Translations under genes and position numbers: made by a program | The notes under the pieces: generated by a model | What the model saw: only the letters and a program-made list of their open reading frames with translations | The model's database searches: none | What the model was told of the DNA's origin: nothing | NCBI GenBank assembly: GCA_032718475.1 | Contig: JAUCBJ010007760.1 | Coordinates: 43,504 to 107,503 of the forward strand | DNA: 64,000 nucleotides | Direction of reading: 5' to 3' | DNA from: Nemertoderma westbladi | Taxonomy: Eukaryota; Animalia; Xenacoelomorpha | Part shown: positions 22,501 through 53,529 of the stretch, in pieces | Layout: each line of letters begins with the position of its first letter | How positions within the stretch are numbered: the first letter of the stretch is position 1

Positions 22501-22887
22501 GGATGATTGCCTGCTGTCGTCAGCATCATTGATGGCAGCAACCTGTTGGTTTATTAGCTCCTGTAGATTAGCAGAGTACTGCCTGTTCAGGGACCTAGAT
22601 GCAGCCTTAACTGCATTCTTGGCCGCTGTAGTCTGTTTGAGTCGGGACTCTTTCTGCGCCTTATGAAGGTCATTTCGGCACTTCTGAATTTTGTTGTCAG
22701 TCCAGGGGGCCCTTTTCATGTTTCGAGGGTATACAGGAACTGTTTCTGCAGCTGCTAACTTAACTGCTTCTGTAAAGGCAGTATAGCCCTCACAGTGATC
22801 TGCCGTCTCAGAGGCAAGAGCCTCATACCTGTTGCTCAGCTGTAGTGTGAAGCGAGATCTCACACTTGGGTCACTTAATTGCACCAA
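19513..22887 (-). mobile_element. RTE family B LINE, truncated and split by solo LTR S2
   Basis: RT ORF 21307..22887 (FVDFFKAFDS, GVLHGDTLAP, FADD). The sequence resumes across the LTR and matches the 18220-18757 copy. Confidence 0.93.
19909..21072 (-). mobile_element. Solo LTR S2 (1164 bp) of the BEL/Pao family
   Basis: TGT...ACA termini, TSD ACAAT (19904-19908 and 21073-21077), ~50-bp tandem repeats at ~20929-21060. Confidence 0.95.
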
Positions 22888-23169
22888 AATCCAAAAAATG
22901 ACACATTTTCGAAGTTCATATTAGAAATACATTTGAAAGTTGTTTTAAACACAGCAAACCTGCTGCGAAAATTTCACCCAATTCATGAAGCCGTTGTCGA
23001 GAAAAAGGTACATTTATCTCTAAATTTCACAAAAAAGTAAATGCTGAGAAAAACGCTTTTAAAGTTTTCAAACCTTCCCGCTAATTTTATGTAAATCGCA
23101 GGAAATTTCAAAATAAGCCAAATAAAATAAACTACTCCAGCGAATAAAATTAACGATTAACACTGAGTT

Positions 23170-23858: not shown

Positions 23859-25078
23859 TGTACGCGCTTTTGAAGACCTTTAGCAGTTTAACCTGCCAAA
23901 ATTTATATGTCTTTTGGTTTATAAATAGACTTTAGAAATTGACAAATATTTAATACCAATAAACACAACATTAGCCGAAGCCAGCCTAGTGCGCGTCCAT
24001 TCACCCGCTGGATATTCCCGGGAGACTGGGTTCGGATGTGGCTTAAATTTTATTATTGCAGTGAAGCCTACTGTATTATTCGATTGATCGTTAATAAGTA
24101 ATTTCTGACAAATATTATTCACTTTCGGGAAATATTAACAGTTCCTTTAGGACGTGGCGCTCTACCTAAGTAAACAGAGCTATGACTTATACTACATGCA
24201 ACGGTAAGGCTTATGATTCACGTATAAGGCGCATTCTTTAGGAAATGCTTTGTTATCAGTCACAATCATGCACACTACCGGTATCGCACAATACTGCACA
24301 CTAATCTGCCGACCGTCAATGAATTTGATCACACATAAAGAGAACAGCAATTGACCTATGTAGTGTCTATCAAATAGCATTAGGTTCACTAAAAACCACG
24401 ATAACATAAGTCGCAATTGTTATATATAGCCTGTCTCTCTAACCTGTAGTGTATCAAGAAAATTGGGAAATTTGGGTTCTTTATAGATGTTCTCCAAATA
24501 ATAATATTCAACCAACTGATAAACACAACAGTAAATAACATTAAGACGGTAGGTTAAGATAATGTAACACGCTGACAATGCAGCAAACACAACCGATCGG
24601 GCAGATCGGGCCTATAACAGTTATACATTCTATAATTTAAGCCTACTAATGTTTTACTAAAAGTCTGAAACGAGTCATTCCAAAAGCCGATGTTCTGGCG
24701 TAGGAGGAATAACAACACACACTGTCCTCTGTCCCTGTTGCAGGTATCTTTTACACAGAGAGGAATAGCTCTCATTGGCAGAACACCAGATTCCACAGGT
24801 TCCACGAATATCTAAATGCCGAACTATCAGGATTTTTGCATCCCTTGGCCAGCACACAAAATGAGTCACTCCGCTCGGTTGTCCTGGTTGCATACTCTGC
24901 TGCTATAGCTCTGGTTGGCCGATAGAACATAGCAAAGAACCCCTCGTACAGCAAATCAGCCAATCAGCCGGTCGCTTGTATCATTCGAGTTAGTGAGCCT
25001 TTTAGAGTATTCCAGCGCCTGGGGGGAAACTGGATTGCAAAGCAAAAGGGCCAGTTATATCCCACAGAAGCTTTTACA
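23859..25078 (-). repeat. E1 3' LTR
   Basis: Direct repeat of 38554-39773. Confidence 0.97.
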
Positions 25079-25086
25079 CCGCTCCC
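25079..25086 (-). other. Polypurine-tract-like site GGGAGCGG abutting the 3' LTR (also 41151-41158 in E2)
   Basis: Position, and identical sequence in both elements. Confidence 0.7.
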
Positions 25087-28227: not shown

Positions 28228-31200
28228 TCACGTTAGGGAGTCCCTAGATGTTTGAGGAATTAGGGAGGTGGTCGTGGGAAGAGTGTCTTGCCTTCCATAG
28301 TTTCCAGAGAGTTCTCTGTCTCTTTCCAGTAAACATAAACGACCAACTGGGCGATTGAGTTGTTGCGTCTCAAAGATTATGCCTGGCTTCTTGAAGTTAC
28401 GCCGCATGACGACAAGTTCTACTGAGCGCACTAAACCATCATCTGAGATGTGGGTCTCGATGATACGACCTGTCTGCCACCGTTTACGTGGGAGGTCTGG
28501 ATCTACAATAAGCACCATATCTCCGGCGCTGACGTTTTCTTGCTGCGCAAACCACTTAGTTCGAAGTTGTAGCGTGGGCAGATAATGTTTCTCGAAATGG
28601 TCAGCGAAACGACGGGATAGCAACTGCATAAGTTGCCAAGTTCGACGGCAGTATTCGTCTCCGTCGGCAATCTCCGATCGTGGGAGCATGGCTACAGGTT
28701 TCTTCAGTAGGAAGTGCGCGGGTGTTAGCGCTTCCAGGGAATCGGGACTCGATGAGACTGGCATAAGCGGTCTCTCGTTGAGATAGGCAGCGATTTCCTC
28801 CATTAATGTCCGCAAAAGTTCGTTGGTGAGATACGCGCGGCATGGCACTATAAAGTGAAATGCGGTTTTGACACTTCGAATTAATCTCTCCCAACTTCCT
28901 CCCCACCAAGGGGCGTCGGCGGCGTTGAAGGTCCAGCTAGACGCTGTTATCCTTAGCTGGTCGTCCACCTGTCTTTGGTTCCAGTCCTTCACGTAAGCCT
29001 GTATTTCGTTGTTGGCACCAATGAAGTTCGTTCCCTTATCCGATCTCATGGTATTACTCGTCCCGAAGCAAGCGATCTGTCGTCGTAAACTTAAGACGAA
29101 GCTGTTGGTAGATAGATCGTTCACCATATCGAGATGGATGGCTCTACAAGTCATGCACACGAAGATGACACACCATCTCTTGACTATAGTCCTAGCACGA
29201 TATACTTCAATAGGGCCAAATAAATCTACACCAGTATTAGTAAAAGGTGGTTCATAGAAGCTTACTCGTTCCCTAGGTAATTCTGCCTCTCGCTGTGTTA
29301 AAGGCCTACTGAATGCTTTCCTGCAGGGTATGCAGTTTCTAAGAACTTGGTTCAGAGCTCTACGGGGTTTATCAAAATAATAGCGAGTTCGAATTTCGAG
29401 AAAAATTAGAATTCGAGAATTCAAGAATTCGTTCTCTACCAGCATGATAAAGTTTACTGTGAACATCTACAATCATCTTGATTTGTACTTCAAGATTTCT
29501 AATAAGTATGGGGAATTTGGTGTCAAAGGATAAGGGCGCATTGGTGAGTCTTCCTCCAACACGTATTAGCCCATCTATCATTGTGCTTGAGAATCGATCC
29601 CTTAAGCGCATCTGCGGATTTCTAAACAACAGGAAATACTTTTCGGAATCCTCATAGCATTGCAGGAGTCTCAGTATCTGCTTATTTGTTTCTTCATGCT
29701 CCTGGTAACTAATTTTCTCCTTTAGAAAACGGTCAGATGTCTTATATTTGGGTAAATTTTTAATAACATGAACTTGTGCAGATGTCAATGTAGCGGTATC
29801 ACTAGTGGTCTTCGTCCTGGAGTAGTGATGATGAAAACATCGTCTTAAATATGTGACGGCTTTACAGAGCCGATTCCAGGAACTGTAATGATGCATTGCT
29901 CTCTGCAGCATGGGTGAGATTCCTTGCGAGACGTCTGGTATTCCAGATTTCCAATCTCTATCTCTAATTTCCACAACAGACTTATTTGTGCTGAGGGATT
30001 GGGGATCCGAAGCATCATTCCCAGAAGTATGTAATACAGATAGATCGATAGTCGGTTTAAATAACTTCGATTTACTCGCCCGGGTTTTAGGTTTGACTGT
30101 CTCCGCTCCCTTGGCTTGTCTAATTTCCGCCGTAGTAAGGTGAGGAGGCCATTCATCCTCTTCCTTGCTCAGGAAGTCGGGTCCACCCAACCAATCTGGA
30201 GTATCTATCAGTTCCTGTGGAGTTGCTCCCCTGGAGGCGATATCGGCTGGATTAATCGTACCAGGGCAATGTCTCCATTGATCTATCTTTGTGCGACTAA
30301 GAATAATAGCTACTCTGTTAGTAACAAAAACGCTGAACTGACAGACTTCATTGGTTAGATACTCCAACACGAGTAAAGCGTCGGTCCAATAAACCGTTTT
30401 CTCCAGTGGATAGTCGATTTGTTCCGTTACGTTCCGGCCGATGGCTGTAGCGTATAAAGCCGCCTTTAACTCCGCTCGAGGAACCTTTAACTTGTTGTTA
30501 ATCAATGCCTTAGATGTAACCAAGGCGACTTTGATTCCATCCGGAGTTTCGACTCACAGATATGCTACTATACCTATTCCCATGTCGCTAGCGTCTCCAA
30601 ACACATGGAGTTGATAGGAATACGTAGGAAGAACATGGCCAAAATATGCACGGGAAATTATAAAGTTCTCGATGGCAGGTAGAGAATCTTCCCATTTCAT
30701 CCATTTAACAATTCTCCCTTAAGCGGATCGTCCCATGAGTGGTTTTCAAGCCACATTTGTTGTACTAAACTCCGAGCAATCAATATAACTGGGCTAATAA
30801 ATCCCAATGGGTCGAAATAAGTGCTCAGGATACTTAAACAAATCCGTTTGGTCCGAACTGGATTATCTCGCTGTTTTAACTGAAAAAACAGGATGTCTCT
30901 TTCAGTGTCCCACTTCAAGCCGAGCGTCTTGGTTTCAGGAAGATCGTCCTTTATTAAGTCTAGGTCTTTCGTTCCTCGGTCTTCTACCGGTATGGCTTCC
31001 AGAAACTCACGGGAGTTGCTAGTGAATTTCGTCAGTCGAAATCCACCTCTTTTCAAACACTCTACCGTTCCTTTCACGACAGCTATGGCTTCTTCTACTG
31101 ATGGAAGGGACCTTAAATTGTCGTCCATGTATATATTTCGTTTTATGTTGTCTATCACTTCTTTTGAGAAGGAGTCTCGGTTGTCATTCGCAGTGGTTCG

Positions 31201-34200
31201 CACCACGGAGCAGGCGTTGGAAGGGCTTGATATGATTTCAAAAGCCTGGATGGTCATCCAATACTCTACCGGTTTCTGATTGAGGTCTCCTTCAGGCCAC
31301 CACAGAAATCTCAGGCTGTCTCTATCTCTATCCAGCGCCTTGACTTGTAAGAACATTCCTTCTATATCGGAAGCGAACGCGATGGAATATTGTCTTAATC
31401 TCAAAAGTATTCCCAACAAAGATTGGAGTAAGTTGGGTCCTGGTAACAACTCGGAATTGAGGGATTGGCCCATATATAGGGCGGAGCCATCGAATACGAC
31501 TCGTACTTCGTGGGGTTTACCGGGTTTGGGAACGTAATGATGTGTTAAGTAATACGTTCTCTCAGTCACTGGTGTTCCTTCCGGTACTCGCTCCGCGTAT
31601 CCCTTTGTTATAAATTTCTTCAGCTGAGTTTGGTACATTTCTTTCGCTGAAGCATTAGCTGTAAGGCGTCGATGTAATTGAGCGATTCTTTTCTCTGCCA
31701 AGGGTCTGTTATTTATAAATCTAGGTTCTCGTTTTCGAAATGGTAGGCCGATTTCATATCTACCTTGGTCTTTTAAAAAACGTGTAGTTGTTTCCTGGAT
31801 TTGCTTGGCTCTTTCTTCTTCTATCGATAGAGCCTTATCATATGAATTGGGCTCTACCAGTTCCTGAGTAAAGAATCGTACGGCTAGTTCGTCCCGAGTT
31901 CTAGCGTTGTAGCGCTCTATCTCATCGTTTAGTTCGTCATTGTAAGCAATGGGTTCCGATGGGCGAATTAGTTGACATAGGTTCACCTGATTTTTCCAAG
32001 TTTGGTTTTCTGTAAGTAGGTCGATTGTGTTCTCTTCATCGAAGAGTTGGTAGATGTCGTCATTATCTGAGGAGTATGGTGTTCCCTCAGTTAGTTCGTC
32101 CACCTCACTGCTCTCCACTTCCCAATCGTTTACTTGGTGTATTTGTTCTTGTGGCATTCTCTCTTCGAGAGTCCTGCGGGAAGGGCCAGTAAAGTACCAA
32201 CCTACTCTAGTTCTTACCGCATAGGTTTGCAGTGGCTGTGGTTGAGCAGGCCGTTTCTCCAATGTTTCGAGCGCCTCATGCGCGTTTTGGCCGATGAGTA
32301 TTTGCACTCCAGGATAATCTGTCTGAAATCGAGGTATTTTAAGATGTTGGATGCTCTCATCCTCGTCCCAATTATAAAGGTCTGCTTGAGTAGTAGCGAA
32401 GTTCTTTATAGCCACCATTTTTACCGACCTTATACCTTGTGCTCCTAACTTATCCTGGGGGGTGGACAACACACCTACATAGTAATCTGCCGTTAAGGTA
32501 GATTTCCAAACCTGCATAATTCCTGACATATTCAATTTAGTCCGGAACTTGGGTTGTCCAGCAAAGATATCTTCGGCTAGTTCTTGATCGATGAATGTTC
32601 CTGTGCTGCCGGAGTCAAGGAGTGCGTTCACTATGTAACTTTTGTTAAGACCGTGAACTCTTACCTGCACTACAAGAAATTCTCTGATTCCTACGTTGGA
32701 AGTTGGAGCTTTCCAAGATGATTGTTTGGCAAAAGTAGTTGGGGGAAACTCATTGTTGGTGTCCTTTTCATAAGTAAGTGCTCGATACACTGCGGTATTG
32801 ATTAGATAACAGGATTCGTTGGCGTCGGAGAATTCGTCAGTATAGAATCCTTCCATCTCAGATTCTTGATCAGTGTCGTTTACATCACTGAATTGGACAT
32901 GTAGTTCGGGCTCACTTACCTGACTCAGTTTGTCTCGTTCGAACTCACTGTGTAACAAGATGTGATGTTTCGCGCTACACTTTGCACACTTTATGTCGGA
33001 GTAACAGGTTCGCCGTTGGTGTCCTGGTCTGAGACAATTATAGCATAACCGCTTATCCCACACAACTGCACGTCTGTCTACAAGGGATTTCTTTAGAAAT
33101 TCAGCACACGCACTCAAACGGTGGGTCCCGTCGCACAGCGCACAGTTAGGTTTTATGTTACTCACTTTACCTTGGGTAACTTGATGCACTCTCGTTTTTT
33201 CTTCGGGTTTTCTTCGGTGCATTCTGTTAGGAGACTGAGGAGGGGTCTTGGCAACCTGTTCTCTCCTATCGTTGTTTCGAGCCTTGTATTTACTTACGTC
33301 TTTTGAGGTTTTGTCAACATAGTAAGATCGATCTGTGTCTTTCCCGCTGTCCTCTTCTTGAGAGGCTTGGCTTTCGCCGTCGTCAGTGTAACACACCGGT
33401 GTTACTCTTCTCCTAGAAGTGGGTTTCTCACTTACCTTATTTTCCGATGTTTTCTCTCTGGACTGCTTGATGAGTTGTAGTTTTACTTCACCATCTAAGA
33501 AGGACATGAGATCAGCCATGGTAGGACTTCATCGTTGTTGTTCATTCATGTACAACACTTTCTTGTCCCAGCGTGTACATACTCCACCCTTTGGTAAAGT
33601 AGAGACTACGGCTCCAATAACCATGGAACTCTGATATTCATGCGACTTACCTAACCAGTCCAATTGTCTACAGATCTCTTGAATCTCATCGGAAAACTCT
33701 ATAATCCCGCTACTAAGGAAGTGTCGGGGGGCTACTAATTTTGCATACAAATACTTAGCTATGTTATCCTTGTTACCATACCTGATGTTTAATGTATCCC
33801 AAACTTGTCTTAATCCTTCTGGATGTCCAATAAACTTTAACGCCATTAACTTGGGAGGTCCTTCCAAGCACTTGATGAGGAACCTAAGTTTCTCTCCGTT
33901 AGATAGCACAGAATTCTGTATGCTGTCTTTGTAATATTCATTGAAAGGTAACCACTTCATCTCATCTCCATTGAATTTGACGATCTCTCCCACTTTGACC
34001 GCTTGGCGGGCTTCTGTTCTAGCCATCTGACGCGTAAAGCTTTCTTGGGCCATCGTGTTATTTAATATCGAATTATCGGTATATAAATTTCCTGGATTAT
34101 TATCAGGTCTATAGGGAATATCATTAACAACAGGTTTATAATCACCCTTAATAGGGTTTGCTATAGGAGTTTCTACTTCACTAGCAGTATAGATGCGTGT

Positions 34201-36320
34201 AGGCTCCACACCTTACGCATGTAATCCTTCAGACCTAACAGGTTGACACAATGTTACAGGGGGTATTGGTATACCCTTTTGTATATTGACTAATTTGTCG
34301 CGTTCCAGCGCGATACTTTGCTGCACTTCTTGCAATTCTGCCCTACCTTCCCTTACGGTTCCCTTAAGTTGGTGGACAGTCTCCTGCATCTGTCCGAGCA
34401 GGAGATTCATCCCCCGTCGTCCCTCCTCTACCCACTCGACCGCCGAAGCGGGAGTCGCCAACATTGTAGCGGGCTGACGTGGGACGACGGGAGACAAATC
34501 TTGGATTTCTCTCTCAGCTTCCAGGACAGGGATATTCTCATGGACTGTTCTACCGGGTACAGGCAGTGTAGTACTGTGTAAAGGGAATTTAGAGTTAAGC
34601 TCTGGAAGTACAGGGGTCTCTAGCACAGTAGTGGCTTTGGGAACGACAGGCCCAATTATTTCAGGCTCATCAACTATAGTAGGGAGTCTTTTGACCTTAA
34701 TAATTTGGTCTGTGGGTTCGGTACTACCTAAGTCTGTACTAGTTAGTTGTCTTCTAACAGCCGGGGGCAAATCAGGCAATTTGTGACGGTGAGATGTTTT
34801 TCTACGCCTGCTTAGATGAGATCTATTTCCTCCGCCTTCAGGATCGGTGGTTTCGCTTTCCTCCGATGATGTGTATCCTTGGCGCTTGGGAGTAGATCGA
34901 CTCCTTATCTGCATTTGACTAGCAGTGAACTGTTTATTTCTGCAATCTTGCGTCTCTTGAAGATTTTCCAACTCCAGTTGTGTGGTCTCTTCAGACGCCC
35001 TCTGTTCTGCTTCTGCCAATGCTATTGCTGCTGCTGCTTTGGCTGCTTCCACTGCCGCTGCCGCTTTTGCTTCTGCCTCTTCCACTGCCGCTGCCGCTTT
35101 TGCCTCTTCCACTGACGCTGCCGCTTTTGCCGCTGCTACTGCCTTTCTGTCCTCTATCCGTTTTTCTTTACTTGTTCTTCTTGGACTCTAGCGAGACGGA
35201 GTTTTTCATCAAATTCAGCCCGGTTTGCAGCTAACATTTCCGCATCGATCGAGTCCAACACAAGCCTGGTTCCTTCACTATTAGGGGAAAGTCCAGACAG
35301 CCGTCTCCTCAACTCTTCATCCCCTAGGAATCGCTGATAGTCGGACAGATAAATGTCGATGGCGTCTCTCGTTCGTGGTCTCTCTGCGGTCTCTTCGCCT
35401 TCCACTTGAGAAAGGGTGACATCGGTTGGTTCGTCATAGGTTAGTCTCTCAGACAACTGGGATTTCCACTGGTCTGTTTCTTGTACTTTGAGACCTACCC
35501 GCTGGAACCAAGTTTTGACAGCAACCTGCAGCGACGTGTCCTGTCTTCTTTTGGAAGTTTCTTCAAAAGCTGATAGGATTAGTCGAATGCGTAGGGTTCT
35601 TTCGCGTACTTGATATAGCAGTTCTTCCTGCTCTTGAGGTCCTTGGGGTTGTCGAAACAGTTGTTCTTCTAATCGCTCTAAGGAGCCGAAAAATCCCTGC
35701 ACATATCCTGCTGCCGACCTCTTCCAAACAGCTGGATCCATCGTATCTTTAGCCACTCCCATCCTGTGTATATCTTCCCAAGTAGCCTCGGACAGATCTA
35801 ACGGGAGTCCGGGTCCGGGAAAGTTCCATTGTGACTCGACAATAGACATCAATTCTTCCCTGGCGTATCCCGCATAATTATCTTGGGTCGCTCGCTTATT
35901 TCTCGCCCAATCGGCTTGATGTTCCTCCACCGCAATCAATATAGTAGTTAGCACTGCGGCGGGAAGGGTGAGAAGGGGGTCCGAGTAGGCTTTAGCCGCC
36001 ATCTGCAATCCGCGTTCGGGGGTCAGCTCGACAGTATCCGAATTACTGGAGCTATCGGATCGCTGGGAACAAGTTTCTTGACTAGGCTGTTGCTGCTGTG
36101 AGACAACTGCTTCCTGGTTCCGTTTGACTTGGGCCCGAGTGCCGATGATAGACCTGCGGTGTTGGATTAGCTTAGGGTCTGATACTACTACTGGAGGGAT
36201 GACCTTTCTTTCAGTAGGAGGTGAGCTGAACTCCTTTCTTAATCGCTCCACACTCCTATCTGTGTCACAGATGGTTGTATCGATTAGACTGTCTGACAGG
36301 TTTTGCTGGGTGTCAGACAT
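28228..36320 (-). pseudogene. BEL/Pao gag-pol polyprotein with 2 nonsense codons and 3 frameshifts
   Basis: Three Gag Zn knuckles (CALCDGTH..C, CYNCLRPGH..C, CAKCSAKHH..H); PR ALLDSGS; RT YMDD; RNase H LHVFGDAS; IN H..HAG/CIPC, GVDLFGP, SDKGTNF, GSWERLIRSVK. Confidence 0.95.
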
Positions 36321-37669
36321 GTTTAGCTATACAGTCGAATGCTTACTGCTATAGTCACAGTTAAAGCAAGTCCAGTAATTCAGTATGACCGTTGGCCTAG
36401 TACCGGTAATTTATTGCAGTATATGAGAATACCGGTATACACTTATAGTATATATAAGTATTGTAAACTAGGTTTGTCACAGAGTACCGGTATATAAATT
36501 TAGCACAAATATATAAATATATAATAGGCCTATCGTGAATACCGGTATACAGCTTACACTTATAGTATGTATAAGTATAATTATGGACTAGAATTAATTA
36601 CAGAGTACCGGTATGATTTCAGCTCAAATTTATAGAAATAAATATAATAAGCCTATGGTAAATACCGGTATGTCAATTATTTTAGAATAATTGAATTTCT
36701 GAATATTTTAGGGTTACTTGGTTACTTTAACTTACTTTGTTACCGTTATTTAAGCAGTAGTCCAACTGATTTTGAGACCTAGTTGTTGTATGGCAGGCCT
36801 ACTATTTATAAATCGTTTGAGTTGATTTATAATATTTATATACCCGTTTAAAATGGGTTTTGTCAATACTTGAAATAAATGTTATTATTTCTGGGGAAAG
36901 TCACTATACAGAAGCGGTGCGCTCTCAGTGAAGTGCTATTTATTGGACACTAAAAACTGATAATTCTAATTTACCTAAGTTACTTAATACTACAAATTAC
37001 TTACGATACGGGTGAGATTAATTCTCTAATTAAAACACAACAAAAATATTACGTACGAATTTTTAGGGTAATTTTACAGGAAGTCTACAAACCAGTCTAA
37101 CAAAGGGTTAGGATTCTGATTATTACAATGGACAGGGTACTACGGTATTTGAAAATAATAAGTAGTAGTAAATATATTGCACTGTCCAGATAGGAAAATA
37201 CCACCACCTGACGACCTATAGCTGTATCGCTATAGGTACTACGTTATGTATCACGGAGTGTCCCTACCTAGAAGTTAATTACCGCGGACTACCAGATCCA
37301 GCGTGCCTATTAACCACTTTACAACACAAATATACTGCCTACACACTAATTACTTCGGAAAGCACTGTACACTAAACCCTAAATTAGGTACAAGTACTGG
37401 TACAACAAATAATCAGTAGTTAAATATACTTGAACAGTTAAAAGAACCACGGCATCTGCTGGAGTGACCGAAGCACAAAGTCACCAGTCTTTCCCTACGC
37501 CAAGCAGCCCGTGTAGTACCGGGGTTAATTTAACTATAACGGTATGTGTAACAAACACAATTACTGTAGGAATAAACTTGGGGACATGAATGTTGCGAAT
37601 AATCGCATAAACTCTGAATAATAAATATTACGCTACCCGTACAGAATACTCAAACAAAATACAAACCAA

Positions 37670-38542: not shown

Positions 38543-38553
38543 ATAACTGTTAT
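38543..38553 (-). promoter_or_regulatory. E1 non-tRNA primer-binding site ATAACAGTTAT, complementary to LTR 39309-39319
   Basis: Abuts the 5' LTR, lacks TGG, and forms a perfect 11-nt inverted match within the LTR. Confidence 0.75.
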
Positions 38554-39773
38554 TGTACGCGCTTTTGAAGACCTTTAGCAGTTTAACCTGCCAAAATTTA
38601 TATGTCTTTTGGTTTATAAATAGACTTTAGAAATTGACAAATATTTAATACCAATAAACACAACATTAGCCGAAGCCAGCCTAGTGCGCGTCCATTCACC
38701 CGCTGGATATTCCCGGGAGACTGGGTTCGGATGTGGCTTAAATTTTATTATTGCAGTGAAGCCTACTGTATTATTCGATTGATCGTTAATAAGTAATTTC
38801 TGACAAATATTATTCACTTTCGGGAAATATTAACAGTTCCTTTAGGACGTGGTGCTCTACCTAAGTAAACAGAGCTATGACTTATACTACACGCAACGGT
38901 AAGGCTTATGATTCACGTATAAGGCGCATTCTTTAGGAAATGCTTTGTTATCAGTCACAATCATGCACACTACCGGTATCGCACAATACTGCACACTAAT
39001 CTGCCGACCGTCAATGAATTTGATCACACATAAAGAGAACAGCAATTGACCTATGTAGTGTCTATCAAATAGCATTAGGTTCACTAAAAACCACGATAAC
39101 ATAAGTCGCAATTGTTATATATAGCCTGTCTCTCTAACCTGTAGTGTATCAAGAAAATTGGGAAATTTGGGTTCTTTATAGATGTTCTCCAAATAATAAT
39201 ATTCAACCAACTGATAAACACAACAGTAAATAACATTAAGACGGTAGGTTAAGATAATGTAACACGCTGACAATGCAGCAAACACAACCGATCGGGCAGA
39301 TCGGGCCGATAACAGTTATACGTTCTATAATTTAAGCCTACTAATGTTTTACTAAAAGTCTGAAACGAGTCATTCCAAAAGCCGATGTTCTGGCGTAGGA
39401 GGAATAACAACACACACTGTCCTCTGTCCCTGTTGCAGGTATCTTTTACACAGAGAGGAATAGCTCTCATTGGCAGAACACCAGATTCCACAGGTTCCAC
39501 GAATATCTAAATGCCGAACTATCAGGATTTTTGCATCCCTTGGCCAGCACACAAAATGGGTCACTCCGCTCGGTTGTCCTGGTTGCATACTCTGCTGCTA
39601 TAGCTCTGGTTGGCCGATAGAACATAGCAAAGAACCCCTCGTACAGCAAATCAGCCAATCAGCCGGTCGCTTGTATCATTCGAGTTAGTGAGCCTTTTAG
39701 AGTATTCCAGCGCCTGGGGGGAAACTGGATTGCAAAGCAAAAGGGCCAGTTATATCCCACAGAAGCTTTTACA
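38554..39773 (-). repeat. E1 5' LTR
   Basis: Direct repeat of 23859-25078, upstream of gag. Confidence 0.97.
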
Positions 39774-39903
39774 ACCTGGACACTGACGAAATCACTTGAA
39801 CACCGAATTGACGGTTGCTACACAAGACTACTAAGGGCAGCCCTACACAGATTAAGATTCAGTGGGCACAGCCAGAGAAGTAAAGACGAGGTCATAATTC
39901 AAG
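39774..39903 (+). mobile_element. Piece of a degenerate RTE family A copy that both E1 and E2 inserted into
   Basis: Matches ~17416-17615 with deletions, and continues after E2 at 51734. Confidence 0.85.
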
Positions 39904-41150
39904 TGTTCACGCTTTTGAAGACCTTTAGCAGTTTAACCTACCAAAATTTATATGTCTTTTAGTCAATTAAAACCACTTTAGCATACGACAATATTTTATG
40001 CTAATACGCAAAACACTAGCCGAAATCAGCCCATGCGCGATCATTCACCCGATGGATCTACACCCGGGAGACTGAATTCGGATGCTTAAATTTTATTATT
40101 GCAGTGTAAGGTTGCAGTGTAAACTTACTGTATTATTCGATAGATCGTTAATAATTAATTCCTGACAGATATTATTGGCTTTCGGGAAATATTAACAGTT
40201 CCTTTAGGACGTGGCGCTCTATCTATTTAAACAGAACTAAGACTTATACTAAAACGCAACGATACTGCTTATGATTGAAGTATAAAGCGTATTCTTTAGG
40301 AAATACTTTGTTACCAATCACAATCATACACACTGTTCTGCCGACCGTCAGTATATTTGATCACACATAAAGAGAGCAGCAATTGACTCACGTAGGGTCT
40401 GCTAAATAACATTGGATTCAATACACACCACATTAATATAAATCGCAATTGTTATGTATAGCCGGTCTCTCTAACCTGTAGTGTATCAAGAAAATTGGGA
40501 ATTTGGGTGATTTATCCGTATTATCCAAAGAGCAATATTTCCATCAACAAATAGGTACAATTAATAACTGACGGTAAAATAACAGTACAAACAATATGAT
40601 TAATGCAATTAAATTAAGTGAGCATGTTAATTAGTGAGTTATTGAGATTAGTTAGGGTAACAGTTTATACTTTCGATAATTTAAGCAGTTTACTAGAGTT
40701 CTTCCCAAAAAGCCGGTGTTTCTGGCTTAGACAGCAATAACAACAAAGTATCAAGTAAGAGCAGTAAGACTGAACACTCTCCTTATGATCGGCTGAAAAG
40801 CTACACGTCGACAGGAAAAATCGCTCTGATTGGCTCAAGCCAAACAAAGAACTATGCGTCCAATGGATGTTTCCATGTCAGCAACCAGCTGTTAGATGTC
40901 GTAATATGAATCATCACGGCTAAGCTGTGAAAGGTAGTTGGTGCATTACAGGTTTTTTGCCTTACCATGTCCGCCAAAACACGTATATAGCAGAATGACT
41001 TTTATGTCCGTTAAAACACCTGTAACGGTACCTTGCGGGCGAGGGGAATATATATACAGTTAGAGAACCTTTTTAGAGTATTCCAGCGCCTGGGGGGAAA
41101 CTGGATTGCGAAGCAAAAGGGGCCAGTTAGATCCCACAGAAGCTTTTACA
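39904..41150 (-). repeat. E2 3' LTR
   Basis: Direct repeat of 50488-51733. Confidence 0.97.
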
Positions 41151-41228
41151 CCGCTCCCAGAAAATGGGATTTAAGTCTATAAAATATACAAAATCACAGT
41201 TTCTAAAATATAAAAATACTCTAAACAG

Positions 41229-42122
41229 TTAGTCTTTCTTGCGCGGACGGCGTTTACGCAGTTTTTTAAAGCTAGCAAGAGTCCTTTTCTCTTTGGGGCG
41301 AGCCACTTTACGAGGAGGGCTATAACTCCTGGGTGAAGGGTGCAATATGATTGCATCAGAAGGTATGGGATTGCGATCGGTATATCCGCCGGTCGAAGTA
41401 CCGGGTTGATTGACATCAACGTCCGGGGAGAGGGGTCTAACGGCTTTGAGAGCTCGTTTCAAGACAGCCGCTCTTACGGGTCCTTTACGAGTGGTCTGAA
41501 CGAGGGCCGTGGGTGGACCATAGGCAGTTAGAAACTTCCTTGGTTTAATGGTTCTTTCCAACTCGCGTTCGCGGGCTCTGTACTCGTAAGGCCGTCGATA
41601 TACTTCCTGTAACTCAGGGTGTGAGTTGACAAATAAGTCTCCATAGGCCGGATCTTGACGGATAAAGTTTATTAAGTTATACGAATTGATGTCACTCGGA
41701 TTAATGCTCCTGAGGAATTTGCGTACATATTTGGTTGAAATACATTCTCCAACGCGCTTCAATAGTTCATAACTTGATAGGCGCGATTTCTGCTCGACGG
41801 AGGCAAACAAATATGGATGGAACGCATAAACTCCTTCGTAGGCGCGTCCAGGATAATAGCGATGGCGTGAATCACAATATAAATCAGTGTTCGCTTCCCA
41901 AGCTCTGATGTAACGTAGTGTGATCATTTCATCTACGCTTTCCAAATCGTGATTAAAAGGGCAATCGAAACTGGCATGTCCCTTTAGTTGACAATGGTGA
42001 CATTGAGTCATAAATTGAGGGCAAACGGCAAAAATGTGCAAATTATTAAATCTGCAATACGCGCAATAAATTTCCATCGCCGGTTGTTCGTGGAAATAGG
42101 AACAGCGGACGTTTGTGTCCAT
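41229..42122 (-). CDS. Accessory zinc-knuckle protein with basic C-terminus (297 aa; frame extends upstream)
   Basis: CAYC..H..C and CHHC..H..C motifs, upstream in-frame CRLC..H..C, C-terminal KKLRKRRPRKKD; conserved in E1 with many third-position changes. Confidence 0.75.
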   Translation of the reverse strand: MDTNVRCSYFHEQPAMEIYCAYCRFNNLHIFAVCPQFMTQCHHCQLKGHASFDCPFNHDLESVDEMITLRYIRAWEANTDLYCDSRHRYYPGRAYEGVYAFHPYLFASVEQKSRLSSYELLKRVGECISTKYVRKFLRSINPSDINSYNLINFIRQDPAYGDLFVNSHPELQEVYRRPYEYRARERELERTIKPRKFLTAYGPPTALVQTTRKGPVRAAVLKRALKAVRPLSPDVDVNQPGTSTGGYTDRNPIPSDAIILHPSPRSYSPPRKVARPKEKRTLASFKKLRKRRPRKKD

Positions 42123-42268
42123 GGGCGTAACATGGTCTCTCGATGCGCATAACCGACAACGTTGCCGAGAAACATAGTTGGCATGGCGATAATCGTACGC
42201 AGTGAGACACTGTGGACCTTGATACCATAATCGTTGTCGCTGTTCCGAGCGCGATAGGCTGAATCTCC

Positions 42269-42667
42269 TCAGATTCTAGACATATTGGTTCGTCTTCCCA
42301 GTCTGTTACGAATAGAATTTTCGTGATCTATTCTCGGTTTATCGTTACGACGCCGCTGGGTATGATATTTAAATAGAACCATTTCCCTTTCGGTGTCTAC
42401 ATCGTCCGTATCATGTAAATCGATAGGATGGCCGGTAGTTAAGAAGTCCATATACGTACCATTACGATGCGTATAGCGAGCGGTTAATTTTCGATAGTCC
42501 AATTCACGCGTAAGTTGTTCCTGGGACATCAGCGGTTCGATATAACGACCATCGTCCTCCGTAATAGTCGGATCGGCTTCACCGCGTATCAAGCTATCCA
42601 CAAACGCTTGTAAAGGTAGAGTATATCGCTCTCTAATATCAAGGTCATCTTCTATCAATTCCGTCAT
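42269..42667 (-). CDS. Accessory ORF A (132 aa, unknown), possibly the N-terminal part of the zinc-knuckle protein
   Basis: Conserved with E1 26307..26606; several of the differences are synonymous. Confidence 0.6.
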   Translation of the reverse strand: MTELIEDDLDIRERYTLPLQAFVDSLIRGEADPTITEDDGRYIEPLMSQEQLTRELDYRKLTARYTHRNGTYMDFLTTGHPIDLHDTDDVDTEREMVLFKYHTQRRRNDKPRIDHENSIRNRLGRRTNMSRI

Positions 42668-44288: not shown

Positions 44289-47200
44289 TTACGTTATAGA
44301 GTCCCTAGATATTTGTCGGATTAGGGAAGTGGTCGTAGGAAGAGTATCTTGCCTTCCATAGTTTCCGGACAGTTTTCGGTCTCTTTCCAGTAAACATAAA
44401 CGACCAGCTGGGCGATTGAGTTGTTGTGTTAGTTTCTCCGCTCCCTTGGCCTGTCTACTCTCTGCCGTGGTAAGATGAGGAGGCCATTCTTCTTCTTCTT
44501 TACTTAAGGAGTCGGATCCACCTAACCAGCCTGGAGTATCTATCAGTTCTTGAGGAGTTGCTCCTCTGGAAGCGATGTCGGCTGGATTAATCGTCCCAAG
44601 GCAATGTCTCCATTGATCTACATTGGAGTTAATATCATCATTATCTGAGGAGTATGGTGTTACCTCAGTGGGTTCGTCCACTTCACTGCTCCCCTCTTCC
44701 CAATCCTTTACTTGAAGTAGCCGGTCTTGTGGCAATCTTTCTTCAAGAGTTCTGCGGGAAGGGCCAGTAAAGTACCAACCTACTCTAGTTCTTACCGCAT
44801 AAGTTTGTAATGGCTGCGGTTGAGCAGGCCGTTTCTCCAATGTCTCGAGCGCTTCATGCGCGTTTTGGCCGATGAGGATTTGCACTCCAGGATAATCGGT
44901 TTGGAATCGAGGTATCTCAAGATGTTGGATGCACTCGTCCTCGTCCCAGTTATAAAGGTCTGCTTGGGTAGTAGCGAAGTTCTTTATAGCCACCATTTTT
45001 ACTGACCTTATACTTTGTGCTCCTAATTTATCCTGGGGGGTGGACAACTCACCTACATAGTAATCTGCCGTTAGGGTAGATTTCCAAACCTGCATAATTC
45101 CTGACATATTCAATTTAGTCCGGAACTTGGGTTGTCCAGCAAAGATATCTTCGGCTAGTTCTTGATCGATGAATGTTCCTGTGCTGCCGGAGTCAAGTAG
45201 GGCGTTCACTATGTAACTCTTGTTGAGACCATGAACTCTCACTTGCACTACAGGAAATTCTCTTATTCCTATGTTGGAAGTTGGAACTTTCCAAGATGGT
45301 TGTTTGTCAAAAGGAGTTGGAGTAAACTCGTCAGTGTCCTTTTCATCCGTAAGTGCTCGATACACTGTGGTATTTATTAGATAACAGGATTCGTTGGCAT
45401 CGGAGAATTCGTCTGTATAGAATCCTTCCCACTCAGAACCTTGGTCAGTGTCGTTCACATCACTGAATTGGACATGTAGTTCGGGCTCACTTACCTGACT
45501 CGGGTTGTCTCGTTCGAACTCACTGTGTAACAAGATGTGATGTTTCGCGCCACACTTTGCACACTTTACGTCGGAGTAACAGGTTCGCCGTTGGTGTCCT
45601 GATCTGAGGCAATTATAGCATAACCGCTTATTCCACAGGACTGTACGTCTGTCTACAGGGGATTTCTTTAGAAATTCAGCACACGCACTCAAACGGTGGG
45701 GCCCGTCGCACAGCGCACATTTTGGTTTGATGTCACTCACCTTACCTTGGGTAACGTTATGCACTCTCGTTCTTTCTTCGGGCTTTCTTCCGTGAATTCT
45801 CTTAGGAGACGTAGGAGGAGTTGTTGTTACCTGTTCTCTCCTGTCACTGATTCGAGACTTGTATTTACTTACGTCTTTATAGGTCTTGTTGTCATAGTAA
45901 GATTTTGCTGTGTCTTTCCTGCTGTCCTCTTCTTGAGAAGCTTGGCTTTCGCCGTCGTCAGTATAACACACTGGTATTATCCTTCTCCTAGAAACGGGTT
46001 TCTCACTTACCTTATTTTCCGATGTTTTCTCTCTGGACTGCCTTATGAGTTGTAATTTTACTTCACTATCTAAGAAGGACATGAGGTCAGCCATGGTAGG
46101 ACTTCGTCGTTGTTGTTCATTCATGTACAACACTTTCTTGTCCCAGCGTGTACATACTCCACCCTTTGGTAAAGTAGAGACTACGGCTCCAAGGACCATG
46201 GAACTCCGATATTCATGCGACTTACCTAACCAGTCCAGTTGTCTACAGATCTCTTGAATCTCATCGGCAAACTCTATAATCTCGCTACTAAGGAAGTGTC
46301 GGGGGGCTACTAATTTTGCATACAAATACTTAGCTATGTTATCCTTGTTACCATACCTGATGTTTAATGTATCCCAAACTTGTCTTAATCCATCTGGATG
46401 TCCAATAAACTTTAACGCCATTAACTTGGGAGGTCCTTCCAAGCACTTGATGAGGAATCTAAGTTTCTCTCCGTTAGATAGTACAGAGTTCTGTATGCTA
46501 TCTTTGTAATATTCGTTGAAAGGTAACCATTTCATCTCATCTCCATTGAATTTGACGATCTCTCCCACTTTGACCGCTTGGCGGGCTTCTGTTCTAGCCA
46601 TCTGACGCGTAAAGCTTTCTTGGGCCATCGTGTTATTTAATATCGAATTATCGGTATACAAATTTCTCGGATCATTATCAGGTCTATAGGGAATATCATT
46701 AATAACAGGTCTATAATCACCCTTAATAGGGTTTGCTATAGGAGTTTCAACTTCACTAGCAGTATAGATGCGTGTAGGCTCCACACCTTGCGCATGCAAT
46801 ACTTCAGACCTAACAGGTTGACACAATGTTACAGGGGGTATTGGTATGCCCTTTTGTATATTGACTAATTTGTCGCATTCTAGCGCGATACTTTGCTGCA
46901 CTTCCTGCAACTCTGCTCTACTTTCCCTCACTGTTCCCTTAAGTTGGTGGACAGTCTCCTGCATCTGTCCTAGCAGGAGATTCATCCCCCGCCGTCCCTC
47001 TTCCACCCACTCAACCGCCGAAGCGGGAGTCGCCAACATAGTAGCGGGCTGACGCGGGACGACGGGAGACAAATTATTGATTTCTCTCTCTGCTATCTGG
47101 ACAGGGATATTCTCTTGGACTGTTCCACCGGGTACAGGCAGTGTAGTACTATGTAAAGGGAATTTAGAGTTAAGCTCTGGAAGTACAGGGGTCTCTAACA

Positions 47201-48308
47201 CAGAAGTGACTTTGGGAACGACAGGCCTAATTATTTCAGGCTCATCAACTATTGTAGGAAGTCTTTCTATTTTAACCACCTGGTCTATGGGTTCTGTACT
47301 ACCTAAGTTGGTGTTATTTAGTTGCCTTCTAACAGCTGGAGGCAAATCAGGCAATTTATGACGGTGGGATGTTCTTCCACGTCTGCTTAGACGAGATCTA
47401 TTTCCTTTGCCTTCAGTATCTGTTGTATCTCCTTCATCAGAGGATGTAAATCCCTGTCTCTTGTAAGTAGTCCGACTTATCAGCTGCATATCACTAGCCG
47501 TTATCTGTTTATTTAAGTAATCGCGCTTCTCTTGAAGATTCTCCAACTCTAGTTGGACCTTTTCTTTAGATGCCCTCCGTTCCGCTTCGGCCACTGCTAT
47601 TGCCGCTGTCTTTCTGTCCTCTATCTGTTTTTTCTTCAACTGTTGTTCCCATTCTCTAACGATGCGGATTCTTTCATCAATTTCCGCTCTATTCGCTGCC
47701 AACATTTCCACATCTATTGCGTCCAACACAAACTTGGCTCCTTCACTATTGGGGGAAAGTCCAGACAGTCGTCTCCTCAACTCTTCGTCTCCTAAGAATC
47801 GCTGATAGTCGGATAGGTAGATGTCAATGGCGTCTCTAGTTCGCGGCTTCTCTGCTGCTGTTAATTCGCTTTCCACTTCGCTTTCCACTTGAGAAGAAGT
47901 GGCGTCGGTTGATTCTTCATAGGTTGGCCGCTCATCATAAACCGTATCCGCCATCTCCGCTCTGCGTTCGGGCGTCCGCTCAACAGTATCCGAACTACTG
48001 GAGCTATCGGGCCGCTGAGAACTAGGTTCTTGGCTAGGATGTTGCTGCTGCTTGACAGCTGCTTCTTGATCCCGCTTGACTTGGGCCCGAGTGCCGATGA
48101 TAGACCTACGTTGTTCTACTAGCCTAGGGTCTGACACTACTACTGTAGGGATGGCCTTTCTTACAATAGTAGGTGACTTAGACTTGGATCTAGGATGTTC
48201 TATACTTGGATCTTGGTCACGGATCCTTTTAATACGCTGTCTAAGTCTAATACTCATTCTAACACTTTCTAAGAGACTATCTGACAGTGATTTGGTTGAA
48301 TCTGACAT
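44289..48308 (-). CDS. Uninterrupted Gag-protease ORF (1339 aa) with in-frame remnants of pol
   Basis: Gag Zn knuckles and ALLDSGS present; junctions SSDNDDI|NSNVDQWRH and AKGAE|KLTQQLNRP. Confidence 0.9.
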   Translation of the reverse strand: MSDSTKSLSDSLLESVRMSIRLRQRIKRIRDQDPSIEHPRSKSKSPTIVRKAIPTVVVSDPRLVEQRRSIIGTRAQVKRDQEAAVKQQQHPSQEPSSQRPDSSSSSDTVERTPERRAEMADTVYDERPTYEESTDATSSQVESEVESELTAAEKPRTRDAIDIYLSDYQRFLGDEELRRRLSGLSPNSEGAKFVLDAIDVEMLAANRAEIDERIRIVREWEQQLKKKQIEDRKTAAIAVAEAERRASKEKVQLELENLQEKRDYLNKQITASDMQLISRTTYKRQGFTSSDEGDTTDTEGKGNRSRLSRRGRTSHRHKLPDLPPAVRRQLNNTNLGSTEPIDQVVKIERLPTIVDEPEIIRPVVPKVTSVLETPVLPELNSKFPLHSTTLPVPGGTVQENIPVQIAEREINNLSPVVPRQPATMLATPASAVEWVEEGRRGMNLLLGQMQETVHQLKGTVRESRAELQEVQQSIALECDKLVNIQKGIPIPPVTLCQPVRSEVLHAQGVEPTRIYTASEVETPIANPIKGDYRPVINDIPYRPDNDPRNLYTDNSILNNTMAQESFTRQMARTEARQAVKVGEIVKFNGDEMKWLPFNEYYKDSIQNSVLSNGEKLRFLIKCLEGPPKLMALKFIGHPDGLRQVWDTLNIRYGNKDNIAKYLYAKLVAPRHFLSSEIIEFADEIQEICRQLDWLGKSHEYRSSMVLGAVVSTLPKGGVCTRWDKKVLYMNEQQRRSPTMADLMSFLDSEVKLQLIRQSREKTSENKVSEKPVSRRRIIPVCYTDDGESQASQEEDSRKDTAKSYYDNKTYKDVSKYKSRISDRREQVTTTPPTSPKRIHGRKPEERTRVHNVTQGKVSDIKPKCALCDGPHRLSACAEFLKKSPVDRRTVLWNKRLCYNCLRSGHQRRTCYSDVKCAKCGAKHHILLHSEFERDNPSQVSEPELHVQFSDVNDTDQGSEWEGFYTDEFSDANESCYLINTTVYRALTDEKDTDEFTPTPFDKQPSWKVPTSNIGIREFPVVQVRVHGLNKSYIVNALLDSGSTGTFIDQELAEDIFAGQPKFRTKLNMSGIMQVWKSTLTADYYVGELSTPQDKLGAQSIRSVKMVAIKNFATTQADLYNWDEDECIQHLEIPRFQTDYPGVQILIGQNAHEALETLEKRPAQPQPLQTYAVRTRVGWYFTGPSRRTLEERLPQDRLLQVKDWEEGSSEVDEPTEVTPYSSDNDDINSNVDQWRHCLGTINPADIASRGATPQELIDTPGWLGGSDSLSKEEEEWPPHLTTAESRQAKGAEKLTQQLNRPAGRLCLLERDRKLSGNYGRQDTLPTTTSLIRQISRDSIT

Positions 48309-50474
48309 GTTTGTTTACACAGTTGAATGCCTACGGCTATAAATACAGTTAAAGTAAGTCTAGTAATTCCGTATCACTGTTAGCCTAATAATTAATTACC
48401 GATACTGCTACTCAGTGTAGCGTGATATATATATAATATATTAGAATACCGGTATGCTTATAATATATATATAAGTATTATTACAGACTAGATTTGTCAC
48501 AGAGTACCGGTATATAATTTTTAGCACAAATATATATAAATATATAATAGGCCTATCGTGAATACCGGTAGACAGCTTACACCTATATTATATATAAGTA
48601 TAATTATGAACTAGAATTAATTACAGAGTACCGGTATGATTTCAGCTCAAATTTATAGAGATAAATATAATAAGCCTATGGTAAATACCGGTATGTCAAT
48701 TATTTTTAGAATAATTGAATTTCTGAATATTTTTAGGGTTACTTGGTTACTTTAACTTACTCTATTACCGTTATTTAAGCAGTAGTCCAACTGATATTGA
48801 GACCTAGTTGTTGTATGGCAGGCCTACTATTTTATTTATAGATTTAGTGGATTTATATGTACCCTTATGAGGGGTTTTATTACAATATTGAAATAGATGT
48901 TACTATTTCTGGGGGGAGTCACTACACAGAAGCTGTGCGCTCTCAGTGGAGTGCTACCTATGGGACACTAAAACAGATAATTCTAATTTACCTAAGTTAC
49001 TTAATTACTACAAATTACTTACGATACGGGTGAGATTAATTCTCTAGTTAAACACAACAAAAATATTACGTACGAAATTTTTAGGGTAATTTTACAGGAA
49101 GTCTACAAACCAGCCTAACAAAGGGTTAGAATTCTGGTTATTACAACGGACAGGGTACTACGGTATTTGAAATAATAGGTAGTAAATATATTGTACTGTC
49201 CAGATAGGAAAATACCACCGCCTGACGACCTATAACCGTATCGCTATAGGTACTACGTTATGTATCACGGATTGTTCCTACCCAGAAGCTAATAGAGCTA
49301 ACGAATGTGCCTATCAACCACTTTACAACACAAATATACCGCCTACACTAATTACTTCGGAAAGCACTGTACACTAAACCCTAAATTAGGTACAAGTACC
49401 GGTATAACAAATAATCAGTAGTTAAATATACTTGAACAGTTAAAAGAACCACGGCATCTGCTGGAATGACCGAAGCACAAAGTCACCAGTCTTTACCTAC
49501 GCCAAGCAGCCCGTGTAGTACCGGGGTTAATTTAACTATAACGGTATGTGTAACAAACACAATTACTGTAGGAATAAACTTGGGGACATGAATGTTGCGA
49601 ATAATCGCATAAACTCTGAATAATAAATATTACGCTACCCGTACAGAATACTCAAACAAATACCAACCAAACGCTGGCAGACTACTATTAAGCCTAAACA
49701 AACTACAGTATGTGCAGATTCTGAAACTGTTAGTTAGTATGCGTTCTAACACGGTAGTACGACTTACTCTTTAAGAGGGGATTGACCTTACCGCTTATGG
49801 CTGCCCCAACTTACTAACGGCACTTGATCAGACCAACTCTACACACGCAGCAATCCCTTCAGACCCAAAAATAGCTAGACAACAATCCAGCCTACAAATA
49901 TTTGAGTAATAACTATTACGGTACCTGAACAGACCACACAAACAAACTCAGGCTAAAACACTGGCAGACTACGATCAAGCCTAGATAAACTACAGTATAT
50001 GCAGACTCTGAAACTGTTAGTTAGTATGCGTTCTAACACGGTAGTACGACTTATTCTTTAAGAGGGGATTGACCTTACCGCATATGGCTGCCCCAACTTA
50101 CTAACGGCACTTTATCAGACAAACTCTACACACGCCGTAATCTCTCCAAACTCAACAACAGTCAGACAGCAGCTCAGCCTACAATTATTTGAACAATCTG
50201 AGCAGACTTACACGTCTTCAGCTCAATATTAACTTACTAGGAAATAAAACCGACAGAAATAAGTAAGCTCCAAAAGAAACAAGGGGTGTACAGTCCCTAA
50301 TCTCTTAAACAGCCTACCGGTATACAATAATCAAAATCGAATAATACTAAATGTACTTGTACAGCAGTACCGGTACCGGTGATGACAGTTAGGCCTACTG
50401 ACCTACAGAAGTACCGGTTCAGTTTTACCAGTCACTACGGTATTTTGCAACCCTATTGCCTACTGCAATAAGAT

Positions 50475-50487
50475 TATAAACTGTTAC
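50475..50487 (-). promoter_or_regulatory. E2 non-tRNA primer-binding site GTAACAGTTTATA, complementary to LTR 51240-51252
   Basis: Abuts the 5' LTR and forms a perfect 13-nt inverted match within the LTR. Confidence 0.78.
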
Positions 50488-51733
50488 TGTTCACGCTTTT
50501 GAAGACCTTTAGCAGTTTAACCTACCAAAATTTATATGTCTTTTAGTCAATTAAAACCACTTTAGCATACGACAATATTTTATGCTAATACGCAAAACAC
50601 TAGCCGAAATCAGCCCATGGCGATCATTCACCCGATGGATCTACACCCGGGAGACTGAATTCGGATGCTTAAATTTTATTATTGCAGTGTAAGGTTGCAG
50701 TGTAAACTTACTGTATTATTCGATAGATCGTTAATAATTAATTCCTGACAGATATTATTGGCTTTCGGGAAATATTAACAGTTCCTTTAGGACGTGGCGC
50801 TCTATCTATTTAAACAGAACTAAGACTTATACTAAAACGCAACGATACTGCTTATGATTGAAGTATAAAGCGTATTCTTTAGGAAATACTTTGTTACCAA
50901 TCACAATCATACACACTGTTCTGCCGACCGTCAGTATATTTGATCACACATAAAGAGAGCAGCAATTGACTCACGTAGGGTCTGCTAAATAACATTGGAT
51001 TCAATACACACCACATTAATATAAATCGCAATTGTTATGTATAGCCGGTCTCTCTAACCTGTAGTGTATCAAGAAAATTGGGAATTTGGGTGATTTATCC
51101 GTATTATCCAAAGAGCAATATTTCCATCAACAAATAGGTACAATTAATAACTGACGGTAAAATAACAGTACAAACAATATGATTAATGCAATTAAATTAA
51201 GTGAGCATGTTAATTAGTGAGTTATTGAGATTAGTTAGGGTAACAGTTTATACTTTCGATAATTTAAGCAGTTTACTAGAGTTCTTCCCAAAAAGCCGGT
51301 GTTTCTGGCTTAGACAGCAATAACAACAAAGTATCAAGTAAGAGCAGTAAGACTGAACACTCTCCTTATGATCGGCTGAAAAGCTACACGTCGACAGGAA
51401 AAATCGCTCTGATTGGCTCAAGCCAAACAAAGAACTATGCGTCCAATGGATGTTTCCATGTCAGCAACCAGCTGTTAGATGTCGTAATATGAATCATCAC
51501 GGCTAAGCTGTGAAAGGTAGTTGGTGCATTACAGGTTTTTTGCCTTACCATGTCCGCCAAAACACGTATATAGCAGAATGACTTTTATGTCCGTTAAAAC
51601 ACCTGTAACGGTACCTTGCGGGCGAGGGGAATATATATACAGTTAGAGAACCTTTTTAGAGTATTCCAGCGCCTGGGGGGAAACTGGATTGCGAAGCAAA
51701 AGGGGCCAGTTAGATCCCACAGAAGCTTTTACA
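50488..51733 (-). repeat. E2 5' LTR
   Basis: Direct repeat of 39904-41150. Confidence 0.97.
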
Positions 51734-53168: not shown

Positions 53169-53529
53169 ATTCAATAAACAAGCCTTGCAAAGGTGGGGTT
53201 TACTCAGTTCAACTCCTGGGTTGCTTTGACAAAACAGCCTCCTTACAGGTTGTTTCCAAAACATAGAGATCCTTTGGGATTTGCCAATTACTTATCCTTT
53301 TATATTTTAACACAATATAGTCATATAATTACCTAAAGTATCTATAATACCGTTACTATTTAATTGCAGATTCAAAACATCTCGTACAAGTGTGCCGTGT
53401 GGAATGGTACAGCAAATAAAATTGTGTTTGATGTTAACTGCAGCGATGAGAAATCTTATATATGCCACATGAACGGTTAGATAATTTTTATTGGAACATA
53501 TTATATTATTATATATCTATATTGTCAGT

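Follow-up and report, generated by a model that had tools for sequence, protein, structure and literature searches.

Two LTR retrotransposons of the BEL/Pao type, E1 and E2, pair the position of their primer-binding site (PBS) with a site in their own LTR, and they probably prime reverse transcription with this segment of their own RNA and not with a host tRNA. We also lean towards a broader reading, according to which a large group of animal BEL/Pao elements dropped tRNA priming. In this group the spliceosome would join an exon 1 of 4-10 nt to an exon 2 of 3-8 nt in the 5' LTR, at the sole joint that fits the PBS, and splicing would license reverse transcription and set the 5' LTR apart from the 3' LTR, which stays unspliced. 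E1 and E2 would be derived forms that arose by intron loss, as on several branches.

Both elements lie in the 64-kb window, by which we mean the whole stretch of DNA that was analysed (Table 1). A third variant of the family, the solo LTR E3, was read directly in the window and adds to the preliminary description, which had covered E1 and E2.

Table 1. Features of E1, E2 and E3, in window coordinates.
Feature	Position	Strand	Remarks
E1, whole element	39773-23859	-	15.9 kb; target duplication CAGGT on both sides
E1 5' LTR	38554..39773	-	1220 nt, TGT..ACA; 5 differences from 3' LTR
E1 3' LTR	23859..25078	-	
E1 primer-binding-site position	38543..38553	-	11 nt, ATAACAGTTAT
E1 partner, predicted self-primer	39309..39319	-	exact complement of 38553-38543; duplex -10.1 kcal/mol
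E1 CCAAT box	39469..39473	-	kept in all three LTR variants
E1 AATAAA, candidate poly(A) signal	38744..38749	-	570 nt after partner start
E1 gag-pol	28228..36326	-	six stop-to-stop pieces, due to stops and frame changes
E1 extra ORF 3' of pol	25157-26206	-	split by a stop
E1 short purine-rich tract 5' of 3' LTR	25079..25086	-	
E2, whole element	51733-39904	-	11.8 kb; target duplication CTTGA
E2 5' LTR	50488..51733	-	1246 nt; single indel relative to 3' LTR
E2 3' LTR	39904..41150	-	
E2 primer-binding-site position	50475..50487	-	13 nt, GTAACAGTTTATA
E2 partner, predicted self-primer	51240..51252	-	exact complement of 50487-50475; duplex -13.9 kcal/mol
E2 CCAAT box	51412-51416	-	conserved in E1, E2 and E3
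E2 AATAAA, candidate poly(A) signal	50675-50680	-	570 nt after partner start
E2 gag-protease ORF	44289..48314	-	
E2 extra ORF 3' of pol	41229..42275	-	348 aa; intact despite internal deletion of E2
E2 short purine-rich tract 5' of 3' LTR	41151-41158	-	
E3, solo LTR, third family variant	19909..21072	-	target duplication ATTGT
E3, sequence at partner position	20642..20654	-	unlike E1 and E2; A-C end before G as in the others; no PBS of E3 within the window

E1 and E2 are BEL/Pao elements by their polyprotein domains. The Pfam domains DUF1759, Peptidase_A17 and DUF5641 were found in BEL/Pao order, in agreement with the family assignment in the preliminary description, and both elements have TG..CA LTR ends and 5-bp target duplications. 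The gag-pol region of E1 additionally contains a protease motif and an RT region, with the RNase H region represented by Peptidase_A17. The RT region is 40-47% identical to the listed proteins that share the same domains (best 47%). E2 is non-autonomous, having lost RT and the greater part of both the RNase H region and the integrase by deletion; its LTRs are still near-identical. The extra ORF encodes three Cys/His knuckle-like motifs. It gave no match in a Pfam search, and Atlas pointed to zf-CCHC clusters and AIR2-like proteins at 0.84 or less, which serves as a lead only. Its product could serve the long loop described below as an RNA chaperone.

The last 650 nt of the LTR (38554-39200 in E1) are 68-79% identical among E1, E2 and E3 and include invariant blocks of up to ~30 nt; mid-U3 can scarcely be aligned among the three variants. 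Since an Rfam search of the LTRs returned no family (best E 3.1), they hold no known ribozyme or tRNA-like element. A consensus fold of the loop in the three variants showed little covariation, in 7 of 151 pairs.

The observations on which the preliminary description based self-priming were recovered. TGG is absent from the first 10 nt after the 5' LTR of E1 and E2, and direct reading showed that the 11 nt (E1) and 13 nt (E2) at this place are exact complements of sites in the element's own LTR. Pairing begins at the first base past ..ACA, which is the LTR boundary, and the partner lies 755 nt (E1) or 752 nt (E2) from the LTR end, at the same position of the aligned LTRs. PBS and partner have changed together, as claimed: when the pairs were swapped between E1 and E2 the match fell to 8 and 6 bp. 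Markov simulations of the LTRs produced the E1 11-mer in 6-25 of 4000 cases and the E2 13-mer in 1-2 of 4000, and matches as long were found at 9 of 13381 internal positions for E1 and at 0 of 9181 for E2. ARAGORN found no tRNA in the 64-kb window. Of the five positions at which the E1 LTRs differ, two lie on either side of the partner, at 39322 (3 nt before it) and 39308 (1 nt after it); as both fall in CpG dinucleotides, they may have arisen by decay.

The CCAAT box that had been noted upstream of the partner was located 154 nt from it in E1, 164 nt in E2 and 148 nt in E3. The AATAAA at the E1/E2 position is not retained in E3. The start of the RNA was approached by folding 850-950 nt. For E1, the long-range helix had a mean pair probability of 0.65-0.89 if the RNA started at most 30 nt from the partner, and for E2 the values were 0.92-0.94 for starts at most 10 nt away. 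With starts at least 45 nt from the partner the predicted probability was 0.03 or less in both elements. These predictions are weak evidence for an RNA start near the partner, as the preliminary description proposed. No strong donor was found upstream of the partner in E1 or E2. A donor-like AGGTTAG occurs downstream of it in all three LTR variants (E1 39140-39134, minus strand), and acceptor-like sites are present in E1 and E2 near the LTR end (38596-38588) and just 3' of the PBS (38537-38529), both on the minus strand. A spliced mRNA of E1 and E2 that lacks U5 or the PBS is possible. A single sequencing run, examined as assembled contigs, yielded neither an RNA start nor an intron joint and does not count for or against self-priming.

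Distant relatives were collected by a metagenome scan with the RT alignment, which gave 548 confirmed stretches, of which 80 with 39-45% RT identity were analysed. From these 80 loci an anchored set of 14 families was picked by eye, with the LTR end fixed where the 3' copy meets the flank. A search of metagenome contigs with the LTR-end motif gave no match, and no relative was found in viral contigs. A self-match of 10-15 bp was present in 12 of the 14 anchored families. In ten of the 14 a match of 11-15 bp depended on removal of a predicted GT-AG intron from the LTR and was 6-9 bp long without splicing; two (L045 and L053) had a contiguous match of 10-11 bp like that of E1 and E2. The sole TGG-type, and thus tRNA-type, site of the set was that of L043, and TGG was absent in 15 of 16 anchored elements. 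L069 gave no match under the chosen boundary; in the scan without fixed boundaries described below, it had a contiguous 12-bp match that begins 3 nt past a nearby ATA. The boundary of L022 was shifted to the divergence point of its two copies after an initial miss. An early 'contiguous' match of L021 was false and was dropped.

Without splicing, the non-TGG anchored families match their LTR over 6-11 nt, mostly directly behind a pyrimidine tract and AG, and joining this site to an upstream GT donor lengthens the match without a gap. The predicted donors are GTAAGT (6), GTAAGC (3) and GTACGT (1), the predicted introns measure 76-186 nt with 44-53% T, and in the ten relatives exon 2 starts 77-223 nt from the LTR end. 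We had considered the C/T-AG 5' of the partner as an initiator, a reading that was dropped since joining the upstream donor prolongs the match exactly. The anchored cores were perfect without G-U pairs in 12 of 14 families. In folding predictions, spliced RNAs reached a helix probability of at least 0.6 in eight of ten relatives at the shortest start and in six of ten with 100 nt upstream, and unspliced RNAs reached at most 0.56 and 0.30, respectively. The preliminary description had proposed that self-priming, with a loop of ~750 nt, evolved independently in Belpaoviridae. The long loop is specific to the family of E1 and E2; self-priming appears as a trait shared by a wide BEL/Pao group and not as this family's own invention. 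Covariation between PBS and LTR extends to many further BEL/Pao families.

In the relatives, pairing continues upstream past a bulge, with a mean of -7.5 kcal/mol against -5.9 kcal/mol expected (17 of 20000 permutations). E1 and E2 are without this second upstream helix, which is found on average in relatives. An exon 1 of just 4-10 nt would be unusual. This length and the continued pairing suggest that the RNA of the relatives probably starts further up, and the junction-spanning partner together with the upstream pairing makes it improbable that the primer is just the first 11 nt. It is doubtful that the partner forms the RNA 5' end in the relatives. TATA mapping is too weak for placing RNA starts because only three of the ten LTRs have a match, 140-188 nt 5' of the donor. 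In nine of the ten relatives AATAAA or ATTAAA follows the primer end at a distance of 6-97 nt; the cut would then fall within R, a requirement of strand transfer. A primer formed by the poly(A) end was rejected in view of these distances and of the 570 nt that separate the signal from the partner start in E1 and E2. The L033/L034 locus consists of three identical head-to-tail units of 6138 bp that share single LTRs, and may be a tandem array or an assembled circle.

The specificity of the self-match was examined with several controls. When the PBS of one family was compared with the LTR of another, matches of at least 10 bp occurred in 9 of 240 pairs, or in 3 of 234 when the related L006/L017/L067 trio was left out. 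Shuffled PBS regions reached the observed length in 0-2 of 300 cases for the 13 positives. When the donor or acceptor was shifted by 1-2 nt, 79 of 80 trials left a match of 4-9 bp. A blind scan, for which LTR boundaries were not fixed beforehand, gave a match in 33 of 51 evaluable loci and 25 of 38 families, compared to 60 of 500 cross pairs; because this background amounts to 12%, unanchored single matches are unsure. In L006, L027 and L059 the top match of the blind scan was a chance site.

The 3' end of the partner was compared in 30 hand-curated families, namely 28 relatives (anchored or not), E1 and E2. Their self-match cores measure 10-15 bp with a median of 11. The partner ends in A-pyrimidine in 29 of 30 families (AC 23, AT 6), including E1 and E2; this end was not imposed by the match search, and kinship among the families inflates the count. 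The next base is C or G in 28 of 30 families, a pattern to which E1, E2 and the aligned E3 site conform. The conserved end suggests a common cut site. In an RT tree built from 27 of 98 alignment rows, E1 and 17 self-matching families fell on one side of a 92/93 branch, values below the star threshold with E1 as a long branch, and the tRNA-type L043 fell outside. The contiguous forms (L045 and L053, L069, E1) occupy separate branches among spliced forms. This scatter fits repeated intron loss, a direction of change that we infer.

The proposed priming reaction would start with genomic RNA, from which the relatives would have spliced the 5'-LTR intron, folding back on the PBS. E1 and E2 have no intron at the partner position and would carry the primer as one piece. 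A cut just 3' of the duplex, after A-pyrimidine and before C or G, would probably be made by the RNase H of the element, as adopted from Tf1, and RT would extend the new 3' end into U5, with TGT as the first bases in E1 and E2. The resulting strong-stop DNA of ~755 nt would transfer to the 3' R, and the 3' LTR, in unspliced form, would serve as template for the region upstream of the cut together with the intron. The intron would persist only if the 3' LTR escaped splicing; one splicing event there would fix the junction in both LTRs, which is the state of E1 and E2. The copying of the primer into the PBS during plus-strand synthesis is part of LTR replication. Here it would generate the new PBS from the self-primer, and PBS and partner would stay complementary and free of G-U pairs. 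A point against self-priming is that closing 755 nt with a duplex of -10 kcal/mol is demanding.

This difficulty would not arise with an element-made primer acting in trans. Such a primer would be a short LTR RNA of separate origin (a solo LTR, a 3' LTR or the second packaged genome) that binds the PBS once it has been trimmed back to A-pyrimidine. A trans-acting primer is compatible with all sequence matches, a solo LTR exists in the form of E3, and the nematode element Cer7 provides a case of an element-encoded primer. Furthermore, a 6-nt palindrome occurs in 6 of 15 PBS cores (L006, L017, L053, L059, L067 and L080) against 1.7 expected, an excess reached in 9 of 5000 shuffles with three of the six cores being kin, and it may indicate pairing between two RNAs. 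We nevertheless consider a trans-acting primer unlikely, since folding in cis is predicted to be workable for E1 and E2 with a near start and for most spliced relatives, and the precedent of Tf1 acts in cis according to the accessible part of its description (PMC7175516). Less probable still is that the pairing is a regulatory RNA structure, such as a splicing guide, a switch for translation or packaging or a dimer contact, and that another primer is used. Like a splicing guide, the pairing spans the ends of both exons, it reaches past the core in the relatives, and an acceptor-like TTATTGCAG is found 3' of the PBS in E1 and E2. However, pairing is retained in the intron-less forms L045, L053, E1 and E2, and its start invariably lies 0-5 nt away from the LTR edge, with no alternative primer site. 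The perfect cores of 12 of the 14 anchored families are unlike ordinary helices, and the conserved end context resembles a cut site.

Priming by a host tRNA fragment or another host small RNA, with the LTR match as a by-product, appears very improbable. The ICTV profile does assign a host tRNA to the family (PMC8742986), and half-tRNA priming is known in some copia lineages (PMC6317226, in the portion available), but the PBS is family-specific and each matches its own LTR and not those of others, and TGG is missing in all but one of the anchored elements. Two features overlooked in the preliminary description could point to a chance match of AT-rich palindromic sequence beside a TATA-like box: the E1 site is a near-palindrome around one central base, and the E2 partner starts with TATAAA. 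Yet TATAAA is missing at this position in E1 and E3, the chance rate is 0.6% or less per element, and the self-match recurs in most anchored families, which makes coincidence hardly credible.

Belpaoviridae are described as elements of 4.2-10 kb with an 18-nt PBS for tRNA-Arg or tRNA-Gly and a poorly understood replication (ICTV, PMC8742986). E1 and E2 resemble this family (BEL/Pao, Semotivirus) in their LTRs, the BEL/Pao domains of gag-pol, the purine tract and the 5-bp duplications, and the relative L043 carries a TGG-type site. In contrast, E1 has no 18-nt PBS for either tRNA, is 15.9 kb long and possesses the extra ORF. Tf1 primes with the first 11 nt of its transcript, according to the accessible sections of PMC7175516 and PMC4600332. 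The elements described here share with Tf1/Tf2 of S. pombe, Tj1 of S. japonicus and Tf1/sushi elements a median core of 11, and as in Tf1-type elements the PBS of E1 and E2 complements the own LTR with no tRNA site. They differ in the polyprotein, which is that of a Ty3/gypsy chromovirus in Tf1/sushi and has BEL/Pao domains in E1 and E2, in the predicted splice junction that the primer of the relatives spans, and in the ~755-nt loop closed by E1 and E2. E1 and E2 are no Tf1/sushi members, though they likely work alike. Self-priming has also been predicted from an LTR match for the plant TAR copia elements (Houba, Osr-1) and for the gypsy element Tcn1 (PMC6317226, available portion). The criterion used there was an LTR match of at least 10 nt lying 0-5 nt after the LTR, and E1 and E2 show such a match; TAR and Tcn1 belong to other superfamilies and hosts, and the same portion of that paper mentions no splice junction. 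The accessible text of PMC3118150, PMC554778, PMC6238403 and PMC8556966 contains no passage on a PBS, tRNA or self-priming, and that of PMC3601003, PMC5443660 and PMC6934838 names self-priming solely for other groups. Our literature search yielded no report of BEL/Pao self-priming or of a splice-junction primer, and subscription papers, Repbase reports or supplements could hold one.

If E1 and E2 indeed prime themselves, they would represent another independent origin of tRNA-free priming, in animals and outside Ty3/gypsy and copia. If splicing assembles the primer, there would be a direct link between the spliceosome and the initiation of reverse transcription. The self-match explains why tRNA-based PBS searches fail on BEL/Pao elements of the E1/E2 kind, and self-priming would free the elements from control by tRNA fragments. 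The predictions are exact to the base, both for the cuts, which would follow 39309 and 51240, and for the PBS that E3-type copies should carry.

E1 and E2 are arranged head to tail, 130 bp apart (39774-39903), and the fragment that holds them also matches an RT-bearing repeat at 17416-17616. E3 has inserted into a small repeat, in the copy at 19514-21246. Fragments of other retroelements with endonuclease and RVT_1 sequences are present at 9026-11514, 16468-17796 and 21307-22920. An ORF of 1114 aa on the minus strand (925-4272) with an Ulp1-type protease domain (Peptidase_C48) is probably a DNA-transposon gene; its 30-nt tandem repeat is found again at 5382-5858. From 53450 to the window end at 64000 the sequence is a satellite of 41-42 nt units, 5' of which a 59/66-nt array (51824-53169) originates from the same RT-repeat end as 17718-17804.
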